IMG/VR virus record: IMGVR_UViG_2529292907_000021
Direction: 5' to 3' (one strand)
Length of the DNA: 42,935 nucleotides
From: a virus
Taxonomy: Duplodnaviria; Heunggongvirae; Uroviricota; Caudoviricetes
Position numbers and translations under genes: made by a program. The notes below the pieces were generated by a model. That model made no database searches. It was given only the letters and a program-made list of their open reading frames with translations, and had not been told where the DNA came from. Of this stretch, positions 733 through 42,511 are shown piece after piece (within the stretch, counting starts at the first letter, position 1; the number at the start of each line of letters is the position of its first letter).

Positions 733-737
733 ATGGA

Positions 738-771
738 GAGCCGGATGCGCTGAAAGGTGCACGTCCGGTTC
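738..771 (+). ncRNA. Group II intron catalytic domain V hairpin
   Basis: 34-nt hairpin with AGC triad near the 5' base of the stem and a GAAA tetraloop, immediately downstream of the IEP stop codon. Confidence 0.7.
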
Positions 772-794
772 GGGGAGGAGAGGCAGGGAAATAG

Positions 795-1295
<501 letters not shown>

Positions 1296-16319: not shown

Positions 16320-17035
16320 GCGCCTATAAGGCTCTCTTACCAGCCGCGCCCTAACAGGCGCACACGATCTGACATTTGCATCCAACTTCGTTACTTACGG
16401 CCCGTAAACGGGCTGCCCGGATAGGGAATCGATAACTGCTCTCCCATTTTATCCTCTTCAAGCTGGTGCTTTATGTAATCCTGTATCTTCGCCGTGTTCT
16501 TACCCACCGTATCGACGTAGTACCCTCTGCACCAGAACTCCCTGTTCCTGTATTTGAATTTCAAATCACCAAACTGCTCGTAAAGCATCAGACTGCTTTT
16601 CCCTTTCAGATATCCCATAAAGCCGGATACGCTCATTTTGGGCGGGATCTCCACAAGCATATGGATATGATCTGCACAGCATTCAGCTTCAAGAATCCGT
16701 ACGCTTTTCCACTCGCACAGCTTTCTCAAAATACTGCCTATTGCTCTACGTTTCTCTCTGTAGAACACTTGTCTTCGGTATTTTGGCGCAAAAACTATGT
16801 GATATTTACAGTTCCATCGGGTGTGCGCTAAGCTCTTTTCGTTCCCCATTGGGACCCCCTTTTGATTTCTTGTTTGACACTTGCAGTTGCCAGACCGCAA
16901 GGTGTTTTAACAAATCAAAAGGGGTTTTAATAACTGGCTCAAAGCTGAAAGCTTTCCGGAACCCCCAGCCTAGCTGGGGGTTTTCTGTGCACAATAAAAA
17001 GGCCTGCATAAGCAGGCCTCTTTCTCAGACTAGAA
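16320..17035 (-). mobile_element. IS200 insertion sequence (IS200/IS605 family), boundaries approximate
   Basis: Contains the tnpA gene plus the characteristic left-end terminator hairpin (AGGCCTGC-TTAT-GCAGGCCT followed by TTTTTATT on the element strand) and a second hairpin (ACCCCCAGC-TAG-GCTGGGGGTT) preceding the tnpA RBS; a further hairpin lies near the right end (~16285-16315). Confidence 0.7.
16391..16849 (-). CDS. tnpA: IS200 transposase TnpA (HUH/Y1 transposase)
   Basis: Translation MGNEKSLAHTRWNCKYHIVFAPKYRR...HIHMLVEIPPKMSVS...REFWCRGYYVDTVG is the hallmark IS200 TnpA sequence; start placed at the internal ATG with AAGGGGG RBS. Confidence 0.85.
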   Translation of the reverse strand: MGNEKSLAHTRWNCKYHIVFAPKYRRQVFYREKRRAIGSILRKLCEWKSVRILEAECCADHIHMLVEIPPKMSVSGFMGYLKGKSSLMLYEQFGDLKFKYRNREFWCRGYYVDTVGKNTAKIQDYIKHQLEEDKMGEQLSIPYPGSPFTGRK

Positions 17036-28417: not shown

Positions 28418-29106
28418 GCTAACCTCAGTTCCAAGTCGTTTTTGACCTTCAATCGCTACCTAGTGGGTAACTCCCAATAACTAAGGAATAGATCAGTAGC
28501 TTTTGCCCTTAATCTCAAGAACTTTCCTTGCCTTAGATGAAGAAATCAGCACTCGATCAAAATTTCTATTTTTTTCTCAATTATTGACATCCCTGCCAGG
28601 CCTTATAAGACGCGCGCTTAGCGATCCTCACCCTTTTTCAAGCTCAATTTAACCTCAAAATCAACTATTGTGCTGAAAAGAATCCCTACTACAATGGGCA
28701 TCAGGAAGCAAGATATAGCAAATGGAAGTCTAAAAAACGCAATATGTTGCGTTTGGTTGGAAGGCTAAATGCGGATATGAAAAACCCGGCTGATTAGACC
28801 GGGTCTTCAATCGGTAACAGAGTTACAGCTCCGTTGCCGTGCCGTAAAACACTGGCGACTTGAAGTAGCTTAATCAAATGCAGCGCATTCTTCAAGTAAC
28901 CAGGAACGCCCTGAAGCACTCTGGTACACCCAGTAACAACTTAGGGACTGATATAGCTGTGAATTTTTAGTCCGGGTTTTTGGTGATTCTTAAACCCCAC
29001 CCCAACAATTAATCGTGCCGTAAAACACTGGCGACACAGTGAAAACTGCAAAGGCAAGCCCATGGGTGTTTGCAGCTAGGCGCGATAAAACTAAGAGAGT
29101 CCCATA

Positions 29107-29190
29107 ATGGCTGACTTACTTATCAAAATCGTACCTCCGATTATCGTGATTGTTACTGCGATCATTGAGTACGTAAACCAGCGCCCGTAA
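29107..29190 (+). CDS. Small hydrophobic peptide (27 aa, MADLLIKIVPPIIVIVTAIIEYVNQRP), candidate small membrane protein or toxin
   Basis: ATG preceded by a purine-rich AAGAGAG element; single hydrophobic helix with polar C-terminus; an intrinsic terminator follows within 20 nt. Below the length threshold of the ORF track. Confidence 0.3.
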   Translation: MADLLIKIVPPIIVIVTAIIEYVNQRP

Positions 29191-29205
29191 GCATGGTATA
29201 GCCCA

Positions 29206-29243
29206 AAGGCCCAGAAATGGGCCTTTCCTTTTACGCAGCAATT
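29206..29243 (+). terminator. Intrinsic terminator after the 27-aa peptide ORF
   Basis: Hairpin AAGGCCCA-GAAA-TGGGCCTT followed by TCCTTTTAC. Confidence 0.5.
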
Positions 29244-29548
29244 CCCCTCAGGTTACACAGCTCAGGAAAATTAGCTCGCACCAAAGCCTCAGCAAACGGC
29301 GGAGGAACAGCGTTACCGCAGCGGGCAACCTGCTTATCCTTCACGTACTTCTTATCGCTGTAGTCCTGAATAATGATATACAACTAAGGAACATACAGCC
29401 TCATACCAAGATGTTCGGTACCCAGTATCAATTGACCTCAACACATAGCAAGAAGTTATTGCACTCGTTCTCAAAGTAAAACCACCTTGAAAAAGAGATA
29501 TCATTTTGATATCATGTCTTGAGAAACCTCTAGAGGTAAGGATTCATT

Positions 29549-29914
29549 ATGCCCTTAAGCACAGATGTTGATCGTGTGTTAACGTTCACTGAAAGACTTG
29601 AACAAATTTTAATGGAAATGGTCGAAAAACATGACCATTTCTTTGACTTCCTTCGAGTACGGGGTGGACAAAATCTTCCCCAAACTGTTTCAGTAAAAAA
29701 TGAAAAATTCAAAATTAGCATCCCATTGATTATGCTAATTTTGTTAATCACACGCTTAATAGTCTTCAAACTTGCGATTATGTATAAGCTCATAAGATCC
29801 AAAATGCTTGAAGTGAAAGCACTGTCTAAAGTAGGCCAAAACACGCATATCTATCTTTTTGATTTAGATACAGTTCGGAAATTGAACATTAAGGAGACCT
29901 TATGTCACGCATGA
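29549..29914 (+). CDS. First gene of plus-strand cargo operon, unknown function (121 aa; C-terminal half hydrophobic)
   Basis: AGGTAAGGA RBS before the ATG; preceded by a perfect inverted repeat GATATCA-N4-TGATATC (operator-like) and a TTGACC -35-like element; AT-rich. Confidence 0.35.
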   Translation: MPLSTDVDRVLTFTERLEQILMEMVEKHDHFFDFLRVRGGQNLPQTVSVKNEKFKISIPLIMLILLITRLIVFKLAIMYKLIRSKMLEVKALSKVGQNTHIYLFDLDTVRKLNIKETLCHA

Positions 29915-30177
29915 AAAAGCCTGACAGCTTTCTCCTTAGATTCAAAGAAGAAGATGGTATCAACGGTATCAGTTCTGAATCCTTTGAAAAACTAATGAAA
30001 GCTACTGGCATGAGTAAAACAGACCTCATGCATTTTGCACTCGTAAACTTAGTGGAAAAATACATCCCGGCTTATGAGCAAGATGATGGGCCCTTGACCG
30101 AAGCTCAATTCCGGACACTACATGAAAGATCGAAAACTAACCAAACGCCGGATGAGAGTTTCGAAATGCTATTGTAG
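29902..30177 (+). CDS. Putative antitoxin-like small protein (ribbon-helix-helix-like), second gene of cargo operon
   Basis: AAGGAG RBS; 91 aa; a predicted beta-strand (FLLRF) followed by helices (ESFEKLMKATGMSKTDLMHFALVNLVEKY) is consistent with an RHH fold; sits immediately upstream of the MazF-like gene. Confidence 0.4.
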   Translation: MSRMKKPDSFLLRFKEEDGINGISSESFEKLMKATGMSKTDLMHFALVNLVEKYIPAYEQDDGPLTEAQFRTLHERSKTNQTPDESFEMLL

Positions 30178-30185
30178 GTATAAAA

Positions 30186-30587
30186 ATGCATTCGAAAATA
30201 GAACCATTGCCAAAGACCGGCGATATTGTTTGGCTACAACCATCTGAAGAATGGGGAGTTGATACTCCCAAAAGGAGACCAGGTGTGGTATTAGGTGTAT
30301 CGAAACTAAGGCATGAAATCATAGTTGCATTCGGTACGAGCCAAAAAACACACAAACTCTACCCATCAGAGTTTCTTATTCAAAAAGCTGATGGCGATGA
30401 TGTTTTTGGTCTATCTGGGTTAAGCTACGATACTAAATTTGACTTAGCCAGAACATCTATCCTGCCTTTTACTACAGAGTTTTTCTCTAAGGCACCAAGA
30501 AAAAATAATGTCCCTTATCCAAAGCTTGGTAGTGTTCATATAACGTACTACAAAGCGATGTGCAAGGCGAAAAACAATAGTAATTGA
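30186..30587 (+). CDS. MazF/PemK-family toxin-like protein (putative endoribonuclease)
   Basis: Motif GDIVWLQPSEEWGVDTPKRRPGVVLGV...IIVAFGTSQ aligns by eye with the MazF/PemK N-terminal signature (GDLIWVDFDPTKGSEQAGHRPAVVL...CVPCTTQ). Confidence 0.55.
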   Translation: MHSKIEPLPKTGDIVWLQPSEEWGVDTPKRRPGVVLGVSKLRHEIIVAFGTSQKTHKLYPSEFLIQKADGDDVFGLSGLSYDTKFDLARTSILPFTTEFFSKAPRKNNVPYPKLGSVHITYYKAMCKAKNNSN

Positions 30588-30594
30588 CTTCTGA

Positions 30595-30626
30595 AGTGCT
30601 GTAGTATCCACTACAGCACAATTTTC
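30595..30626 (+). terminator. Intrinsic terminator ending the plus-strand cargo operon
   Basis: Hairpin GTGCTGTAG-TATCCA-CTACAGCAC followed by AATTTTCT. Confidence 0.5.
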
Positions 30627-30729
30627 TAAGCAATCAATAAACTTACTATTTCAAATCATTCCCCCTGCCCCAATAGGATCTGATCGCGTTCGTCATCGGT
30701 TACTGGTGCTGACTCAGTTAAGTTAATTT

Positions 30730-31215
30730 TCATACCGAACCGCTTTTAACAAAGATAATCCAGTGAGTTTTGTCGTTCTTTCCGGTACGCTGACCAATTG
30801 CAGGTTTCACATCTGTAAGTGCCAAAATCTGGCTAACAGGGATCTGCGTCTCGTTCCATTTGAATATGAGAACGCCGTGTGGCCACAGTACGCGAAAAGC
30901 CTCTTTGAATCCGCTTCGTAAATCAGAACGCCACGTTTTTTTGTTCAGTCGCCCGTATTTTTTACCCATCCAGGCAGACTGGCCAACGCGCTCGAGGTGC
31001 GGCGGGTCAAACACCACAACCGGAAAAGAAGAATCAGCGAACGGCAGTGAACGAAAATCGGCAATCAGGTCGGGACTGATAACCAGGCGGCGACCGTCGC
31101 ACAGTTCGTGCTCTTCGGCGCGGATATCAGTGAACACGGCGCGGGTGTCCTGCTTGTTGAACCAGAACATGCGGGAGCCGCAGCACATATCAAGAATCGT
31201 CGTGCTGTCGGTCAT
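30730..31215 (-). CDS. Small putative SAM-dependent DNA methyltransferase (start chosen at ATG overlapping upstream stop)
   Basis: Contains a motif I-like ILDMCCGSR and a motif IV-like VVVFDPPH (DPPH/DPPY class of amino-methyltransferases); ATGA overlap with the upstream gene. Confidence 0.4.
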   Translation of the reverse strand: MTDSTTILDMCCGSRMFWFNKQDTRAVFTDIRAEEHELCDGRRLVISPDLIADFRSLPFADSSFPVVVFDPPHLERVGQSAWMGKKYGRLNKKTWRSDLRSGFKEAFRVLWPHGVLIFKWNETQIPVSQILALTDVKPAIGQRTGKNDKTHWIIFVKSGSV

Positions 31216-42244: not shown

Positions 42245-42320
42245 ACAGGATATGGAAATTTCGAGTAATTTTCGTGGGATTTCGTGAAAGCACCGAAAAA
42301 ACCCAATGAAAACAGATAGA

Positions 42321-42424
42321 TAAAAAGAGACCGAATACGATTCCTGTATTCGGTCCAGGGAAATGGCTCTTGGGAGAGAGCCGTGCGCTAAAAGTTGGCA
42401 TTAATGCAGGCTTAGTTGCCTTGC
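42321..42424 (-). ncRNA. sdsR: SdsR (RyeB)-like Hfq-dependent small RNA, ~104 nt
   Basis: Minus-strand sequence begins GCAAGGCAACTAAGCCTGCATTAATGCC... and ends in hairpin GACCGAATACAGGAATCGTATTCGGTC plus TCTTTTT; a sigma-S-like -10 (CTATTCT) lies ~7 nt upstream of the inferred 5' end; sequence matches my recollection of SdsR but was not database-verified. Confidence 0.5.
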
Positions 42425-42511
42425 CCTTTAAGAATAGATGACGACGCCAGGTTTTCCAGTTTGCGTGCAAAATGGTCAATAAAAAGCGCGGTAGTCATCA
42501 GCTTAAATGTT

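Follow-up and report, generated by a model that had tools for sequence, protein, structure and literature searches.

A probable MazF/PemK-superfamily toxin-antitoxin operon with an orphan first gene, carried as optional cargo in a lambdoid prophage

Layout and distribution of the cassette

Three small genes on the plus strand form a compact cassette in a 42,935-nucleotide stretch of Caudoviricetes DNA (IMG/VR record IMGVR_UViG_2529292907_000021), which we call the window. We designate these genes g1 (29549-29914, 121 amino acids), g2 (29902-30177, 91 amino acids) and g3 (30186-30587, 133 amino acids), and we present evidence that the region is probably a type II toxin-antitoxin operon of the MazF/PemK superfamily, self-contained and autoregulated, which is carried as optional cargo and bears a clade-specific first gene. 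The coordinates of the three open reading frames (ORFs) agree exactly with those of a first-pass annotation made from the sequence alone. Two other parts of that description also hold: the cassette runs against the grain of its surroundings, as the flanking genes are all on the minus strand, and it is AT-rich, with a guanine-plus-cytosine content of 34-42% inside the cassette versus 52-57% in the flanks.

The minus-strand genes on one flank encode YdaT, replication protein O, a DnaC/IstB-like ATPase and a small methyltransferase, and those on the other flank encode a DUF1367 protein, NinG and antiterminator Q. Within a lambdoid prophage, whose host probably belongs to the Citrobacter freundii complex, the cassette sits in a variable slot flanked by the replication genes and the nin/Q genes, and it is oriented opposite to the minus-strand early/lytic operon, with a promoter, an operator and a terminator of its own. 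The C-terminal remnant of a gene for a DNA cytosine-5 methyltransferase (29231-29383, minus strand; …CGNAVPPPF…) is cut off exactly at the left edge of the cassette, and positions 29262-29353 within it show a 91% match to genes annotated in E. coli as 'DNA cytosine methyltransferase'. A Klebsiella prophage has an intact DNA_methylase gene on the opposite side of its cassette.

The cassette, at 94.5% identity, was present in 4 of 5,426 complete E. coli genomes, always in lambdoid prophages, and it was absent, by DNA or by protein, from all 50,697 phage records searched. In a related E. coli prophage that shares the replication and methyltransferase genes, different genes fill the cassette slot. 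These results bear out the proposal that the cassette is prophage cargo and not part of a phage core. In the cassette-free prophage of E. coli 2018-10-1CC (locus L105, 3680-3771), the slot holds small genes and an annotated plus-strand tRNA-Ile that is unusually long at 92 nucleotides; this position is a hotspot for variable cargo.

Other carriers of the three-gene unit are Klebsiella, Enterobacter, Pectobacterium and Raoultella-type prophages, a conjugative element of Rahnella, in which SIR2_2 and Mrr-type genes lie alongside, and integrase-bearing islands in Pectobacterium and Pantoea ananatis. This distribution indicates that the unit is transferred whole between prophages, integrative islands and a conjugative element and, as g1 travels with g2-g3 across element types, it upholds the earlier treatment of the three genes as one unit. 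In Rahnella aceris (locus L090, 1-3045 and 8095-8273), the cassette adjoins a gene for a 1,058-residue SIR2_2-domain protein, with an Mrr_cat protein encoded nearby, and the neighbourhood looks like a defence island.

The MazF/PemK-fold protein and its partner

The g3 product is a putative sequence-specific endoribonuclease of the MazF/PemK fold, with Arg31 and Thr51 as candidate catalytic residues. The first-pass annotation had recognized a MazF/PemK signature near its N-terminus (GDIVWLQPSEEWGVDTPKRRPGVVLGV, residues 12-38), and both signature and fold were borne out by our comparisons. First, residues 10-73 matched the Pfam PemK_toxin family (PF02452, of the CcdB/MazF superfamily) at 22.4 bits (gathering score 23.1), 75 of 80 relatives of g3 matched the same family at E ≤ 0.01 (best E 2.2e-8), and weak matches were found to NCBIfam MazF and to the PHROGs 'MazF-like growth inhibitor' family. 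Sequence searches of the PDB, with the single protein and with a profile, yielded only weak N-terminal MazF matches. Second, the predicted structure of g3 contains the SH3-like barrel of MazF and Kid, and its top structural matches were all MazF proteins, the best being those of Staphylococcus aureus, Bacillus subtilis and Mycobacterium tuberculosis. Third, hhalign placed Arg31-Pro32 of g3 on Arg29-Pro30 of E. coli MazF and Thr51-Ser52-Gln53 on Thr52-Thr53-Gln54. In an alignment of 80 family members, Arg31, Pro32, Gly50 and Thr51 were invariant and the Arg-Pro and Thr-Ser-Gln motifs were kept. Finally, an identical protein is already named 'type II toxin-antitoxin system PemK/MazF family toxin' by NCBI. 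On the strength of the model and these alignments, we regard g3 as a MazF/PemK-fold protein, from which growth inhibition and RNA cleavage would be expected.

Damaged copies of g3 recur. In E. coli B4103-1 (locus L001, 9807-10207), one of the four E. coli genomes with the cassette, g3 is frameshifted near codon 25, and at least 34 contigs carry N-terminally truncated variants of 100-111 residues (protein cluster 3); g1 and g2 are intact in a C. freundii genome that has such a variant. Recurrent lesions confined to g3 point to a toxic product. They also speak, together with the invariance of the catalytic Arg-Pro and Thr-Ser-Gln motifs among the 80 relatives, against the idea that g3 has the MazF fold but is not an RNase toxin, being instead a CcdB-like gyrase poison or an inactive remnant in a pair that does not work, an explanation that we regard as highly improbable.

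Directly upstream, g2 (plus strand, 29902-30177) encodes a putative antitoxin and probable autorepressor. Its product has an N-terminal strand (FLLRF), a short insertion of 6-7 residues between this strand and helix A, two helices, and a conserved C-terminal half containing the sequence YEQDDGPLT. Scanning genomes with the g3 alignment yielded 259 loci at ~40% identity, the majority of them in Betaproteobacteria. Synteny was counted in 89 loci: a g2 homologue (~30% identity) lay directly 5′ of the g3 homologue in 86 of the 89, from Enterobacterales to Betaproteobacteria and on conjugative plasmids, with gaps that were typically -4 to +23 nucleotides (four were larger outliers). A word-indexed protein search gave 14 clusters for g3 and 9 for g2, all from Enterobacterales. 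Relatives at 46% identity are carried by 52 plasmids, mostly conjugative Klebsiella plasmids, and in one case examined the plasmid pair adjoins repA. The 86/89 synteny and the plasmid-borne pairs are the signature of a type II toxin-antitoxin pair, and by this sequence evidence g2 is the predicted cognate antitoxin of g3.

The first-pass annotation had taken g2 for a ribbon-helix-helix (RHH) antitoxin. A conserved partner 5′ of g3 is what we found, so that part stands; for g2 an RHH fold is plausible and, as a prediction, likely. Aligned by hhalign with the RHH repressor CopG, g2 gave 45% probability and an E-value of 2e-4 over helix A, the turn and helix B; its alignment with Arc had the expected register but was not significant (1.9% probability). 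Weak, sub-threshold matches to Pfam PSK_trans_fac were seen in 19 of 73 members of the g2 family. The g2 protein itself had no match in Pfam, NCBIfam, PHROGs or PADLOC, and its PDB matches were at chance level. Neither g2 nor its 73 relatives matched MazE/AbrB-type antitoxin profiles in Pfam or NCBIfam, and no antitoxin of this type was matched in the PDB. At the level of the searches run, an AbrB-type MazE is thus excluded for g2.

Operator, promoter and the orphan first gene

A sequence of the form GATATC-N5-GATATC, unstranded, spans positions 29497-29513 upstream of g1 and consists of two palindromic half-sites with centres 11 bp apart. It can also be described as GATATCA-N3-TGATATC or as two direct copies of GATATCAT spaced 11 bp apart (29497-29515). 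The inverted repeat noted in the first-pass annotation is therefore present, with a spacer of three nucleotides and not four. One copy of the motif occurs in the window versus 0.06 expected by chance. Among 76 two-gene loci, which have g2 and g3 homologues and no g1, the motif was exact in 36 and had one mismatch in 15 (51/76 together), at 33-54 nucleotides 5′ of the g2 start, whereas no segment among 68 controls matched it with two mismatches or fewer. The motif persists in all three-gene cassettes despite flanks that cannot be aligned, with a variant, GCTAGC-N5-GCTATC, in the Pectobacterium three-gene cassette. Because the palindrome is conserved across the family and in none of the controls, we interpret it as the family's operator, in keeping with its first description as operator-like. 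RHH repressors bind palindromic sites as two dimers, and two 6-bp palindromes one helical turn apart would fit RHH-like binding by two dimers. In a subgroup of two-gene modules (L004-L027, several Betaproteobacteria loci), TATATA-N5-TATATA stands at the operator position, which suggests co-variation of operator and antitoxin within the family. On pINF177.3, the Klebsiella pneumoniae IncFII/IncR plasmid in which the pair adjoins repA (locus L104, 1965-2030), two tandem operator copies (GATATCAAATTGATATC and GATATCAAATTGATATA) lie ~150-210 nucleotides 5′ of the antitoxin gene, which has a long leader with an ORF of 12 codons.

The operator overlaps a sigma-70-type promoter (29487-29515, plus strand), in which a TTGAAA -35 box (29487-29492) is followed by a 17-nucleotide spacer and an extended -10 element, TGaTATCAT (29507-29515). 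This TTGAAA-17-TATCAT site, with its TG extension, matched 10 of 12 positions and was the only promoter-like site found by a promoter scan of 29200-30800, and its -10 box overlaps the second operator half-site. The E. coli, Klebsiella, Enterobacter, Pectobacterium, Rahnella and Pantoea cassettes retain a -35 box of the form TTGA/TTGC and a -10 box within the operator, and two-gene relatives have a TTGACA -35 box at the expected, equivalent distance. We rejected as the operon promoter the site proposed earlier, TTGACC-17-GTTATT (29432-29460), because its -10 box is poor (3/6) and the scan did not detect it, whereas TTGAAA-17-TATCAT is both better and conserved. Overlap of palindrome and promoter suggests autoregulation.

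Translation signals are of unequal quality. Read from the sequence, a Shine-Dalgarno element for g1, AAGGA (29538-29542, plus strand), lies 6 nucleotides before the ATG; it is strong, as is the g2 ribosome-binding site AAGGAG (29891-29896), and the earlier mention of strong sites applies to these two, the AGG in front of g3 being modest. The operon has its own intrinsic terminator, as had been claimed (30596-30626, plus strand; found by a terminator scan), with a hairpin of a 10-bp stem and 4-nucleotide loop (30596-30619) followed by the T-rich tail AATTTTCT. Each of eight lineages has its own hairpin just 3′ of g3 (-13 to -21 kcal/mol); the hairpin sequences are unrelated, and a run of T after the hairpin is clear in most but not all of the lineages.

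Between operator and antitoxin gene lies g1 (plus strand, 29549-29914), which encodes a basic orphan protein. All nine lineages have an uninterrupted g1 frame (121-140 codons), the other five frames contain 2-18 stops, and the conserved core shows frequent synonymous changes; g1 is a real coding frame. An antisense ORF (29530-29844, 104 amino acids) was rejected as a gene, as it has 2-7 stops in the nine lineages and shares wobble positions with g1, and a 30-nucleotide stretch of g1 that is identical in the window and in Enterobacter was rejected as a nucleotide-level element, as it is not conserved in other lineages. An exhaustive search of 1.84 billion representative proteins with a hidden Markov model returned six representatives of the g1 family, all from the three-gene cassette type and none apart from g2-g3; a word-indexed search returned 10 proteins. 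No match to g1 was found in Pfam, PHROGs, NCBIfam, PADLOC or the PDB, where sequence matches were at chance level. Two-gene loci contain no consistent g1-like ORF, and nothing comparable was seen outside the Enterobacterales clade. Within that clade, g1 is always located between the operator and g2, overlapping the g2 start by 13 nucleotides in eight of nine lineages and by 37 in Pantoea ananatis.

The first-pass annotation gave g1 a hydrophilic N-terminus and a hydrophobic C-terminal half. Hydropathy analysis shows instead a central hydrophobic helix (residues ~56-82) and a hydrophilic tail. A low-confidence model places helices at residues 4-38 and 60-96, the latter hydrophobic, on either side of a beta-hairpin at 46-59 (SVKNEKFKISIPL, conserved), followed by a disordered tail. 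A likeness to prefoldin-beta topology was not significant, and we did not rely on it. The 19-residue Kyte-Doolittle maximum ranges from 0.87 to 2.93 among homologues, a span that led us to reject g1 as a membrane protein family-wide; a membrane anchor is possible for the copy in the window. As modules that lack g1 have the operator as well, and as it is tied to g2, g1 does not serve as the dedicated regulator.

What g1 does is the point on which readings of the operon diverge. Pairwise identities among the nine lineages are 23-88% for g1, 70-100% for g2, the most conserved of the three, and 59-93% for g3; g1 changes ~3 times faster than its neighbours, and the Klebsiella oxytoca g1 variant is discordant with its g2 and g3 partners. 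Such a pattern is typical of a conflict interface and would suit a true three-component anti-phage (abortive-infection) system, in which g1 is a fast-evolving sensor, trigger or membrane effector through which infection of the lysogen by a competing phage leads to release or complementation of the MazF-like toxin. The same pattern can also be explained by weak constraint. That g1 is kept in a fixed position, overlapping g2, in all nine diverged lineages, and that it moves with g2-g3 among prophages, islands and a conjugative element where SIR2 and Mrr-type genes are close by, favours such a system, as does the orientation of the cassette, opposite to that of the lytic operon; with a promoter of its own, it could be expressed in the lysogen. 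Against it, none of the three proteins matched a PADLOC model (PADLOC-DB 2.0.0, E ≤ 1), and two-gene relatives do without g1, some of them adjoining plasmid replicons, the classic addiction setting. We consider an anti-phage system possible but rather unlikely. Doubtful, too, is its specific form, that the Enterobacterales clade represents a tripartite MazEF-type derivative in which g1, with its modelled helix-hairpin-helix layout and possible membrane association, became the infection sensor, trigger or second effector, so that an addiction module would have turned into an anti-phage system not yet described, borne by prophages and a conjugative element.

About as likely as tripartite defence, and like it improbable in our estimation, is that g1 is a passenger with an unrelated function, for example a small membrane-associated protein of prophages or mobile elements that uses the toxin-antitoxin promoter. 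The restriction of the g1 family to one clade and the ancestral module without g1 would be expected of a passenger, and g2, with its own strong ribosome-binding site, has no need of g1 translation. The central helix is strongly hydrophobic in most variants (Kyte-Doolittle 2.1-2.9), as in small membrane proteins, but this property is not universal, two variants reaching only 0.87 and 1.55. Against a passenger, g1 was never seen away from g2-g3 in the 1.84 billion proteins, its linkage survives transfers between different kinds of element, and the overlap with g2 is maintained in every lineage.

An autoregulated toxin-antitoxin operon, the explanation we prefer, builds on the gene structure, the fold and conserved catalytic residues of g3, the synteny of the pair, the conserved operator and the mobility of the unit, all observed here. 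In such an operon, g3 would be a MazF-fold endoribonuclease whose cutting of RNA arrests growth, and g2 would be a labile antitoxin whose C-terminal half covers the toxin and whose RHH-like N-terminal domain binds the GATATC half-sites over the -10 box, turning the operon off. If the element were lost, or host gene expression blocked, decay of the antitoxin would release the toxin, with addiction or abortive infection as the outcome. In this scheme, g1 would be a clade-specific orphan inserted between the ancestral operator and the antitoxin gene, a location from which it would be co-transcribed, co-repressed and translationally coupled with g2; most likely it would act as an accessory factor of the toxin-antitoxin module.

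Several observations weigh against this explanation. The g3 protein scores 0.7 bit under the Pfam gathering score, it resembles MazF in sequence over its N-terminal half only, and its model is of moderate confidence, with a predicted local distance difference test (pLDDT) score of 71.5 and residues 107-121 below 50. A profile search with g2 gave no significant match to a solved RHH or MazE structure. For g1, the AlphaFold2 model has low confidence (pLDDT 63, predicted template-modelling score 0.33), and a Foldseek search of the PDB with that model found nothing better than E ~7; g1 has no detectable relative. Toxicity, neutralisation, DNA binding and any action of g1 are predictions.

Known systems, other features of the window and significance

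The cassette most resembles MazEF/PemIK (Kis-Kid) systems, which are found on the E. coli chromosome and on plasmids R100 and R1. It shares with them the MazF/Kid fold and catalytic motifs of the toxin, an antitoxin gene immediately 5′ of the toxin gene, a palindromic operator that overlaps the promoter, and residence on plasmids, prophages and islands. It differs from them in that g2 is not an AbrB/SpoVT-type MazE or PemI (no Pfam match to those families), g3 belongs to a divergent subfamily that is borderline for the Pfam model and marked by a family-specific LSYDTKFD motif, the GATATC-N5-GATATC operator is specific to the g2-g3 family, and the clade to which the window belongs carries the additional first gene. 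In Gram-positive MazEF systems, such as EndoAI/EndoA of B. subtilis and MazEF of S. aureus, MazE has an RHH DNA-binding domain. The best structural matches of g3 include the MazF proteins of both species, along with that of M. tuberculosis, and the strand-helix-helix pattern of g2 aligns with CopG over both helices, but g2 has no significant similarity to solved MazE proteins, contains the 6-7-residue insertion and has a fold that is predicted from sequence.

Known three-component systems include omega-epsilon-zeta, PaaR2-PaaA2-ParE2, PasABC, and the toxin-antitoxin-chaperone systems HigBA-SecB and CmdTAC (PMC9098466, PMC11618068; partly general knowledge). Like the cassette, with its predicted co-transcription, they comprise three small co-transcribed genes on mobile elements, with an extra first or third gene beside a toxin-antitoxin pair. 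Unlike the extra components of these systems, g1 has no SecB-like, helix-turn-helix or RHH signature by Pfam, NCBIfam, PHROGs, PADLOC or structure, and the operator is older than g1 and belongs with g2. In contrast to toxin-antitoxin-chaperone systems, g2 also lacks an extra C-terminal extension, a potential chaperone-addiction tail, relative to its two-gene counterparts. The MazF-like GajC of 'type II Gabija' (PMC13069673) is unrelated. Literature searches for a tripartite MazF system, for a GATATC operator and for the E. coli protein accessions returned nothing relevant.

The first-pass suggestion of an undescribed system does not apply to the pair itself: as a type II MazF/PemK module, g2-g3 is ordinary and widespread, with an occurrence beside repA on conjugative plasmids as well, and the toxin family is known and already annotated. 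New, as far as we searched the literature, are the antitoxin family, for which none of the libraries searched has a profile, the family-wide operator and the orphan g1.

Several other features were noted in the window. A 27-codon ORF (29107-29190, plus strand), preceded by an RBS-like AAGAGAG sequence, encodes a very hydrophobic peptide, MADLLIKIVPPIIVIVTAIIEYVNQRP, which resembles a small membrane peptide or a type I toxin and has no match in NCBIfam; a GC-rich hairpin after it (~29205-29232) could end transcription in both directions. A perfect 22-nucleotide direct repeat, CGTGCCGTAAAACACTGGCGAC, occurs at 28838-28859 and 29014-29035, and an isrK-like Rfam match (28732-28829, minus strand) that ends in a terminator-like hairpin was sub-threshold, at 17.5 bits versus a gathering score of 50. 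Both lie in an ORF-poor region (28420-29100) and may represent prophage small RNAs. Three Rfam matches exceeded the gathering score: a group II intron catalytic domain (736-822, plus strand; 64.9 bits), the Hfq-binding small RNA STnc490 (16859-16982, minus strand; 146 bits) and, on both strands of 42318-42462, the SraC/RyeA and SdsR/RyeB pair (178 and 116 bits), which suggests that the prophage adjoins the chromosomal ryeA/sdsR locus.

If g1 is only a passenger, the cassette is an ordinary prophage-borne toxin-antitoxin module. The comparisons described here delimit a MazF subfamily that is coherent, is paired with an unannotated antitoxin family of its own and has GATATC-N5-GATATC as its signature operator, and they enable the naming of hundreds of 'hypothetical' genes in Proteobacteria, Klebsiella plasmids and prophages. 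One clade with a third gene inside the autoregulated operon constitutes a natural experiment. Comparison of the two-gene and three-gene forms could show how accessory sensors or effectors are gained, and it bears on how such modules become phage defence.

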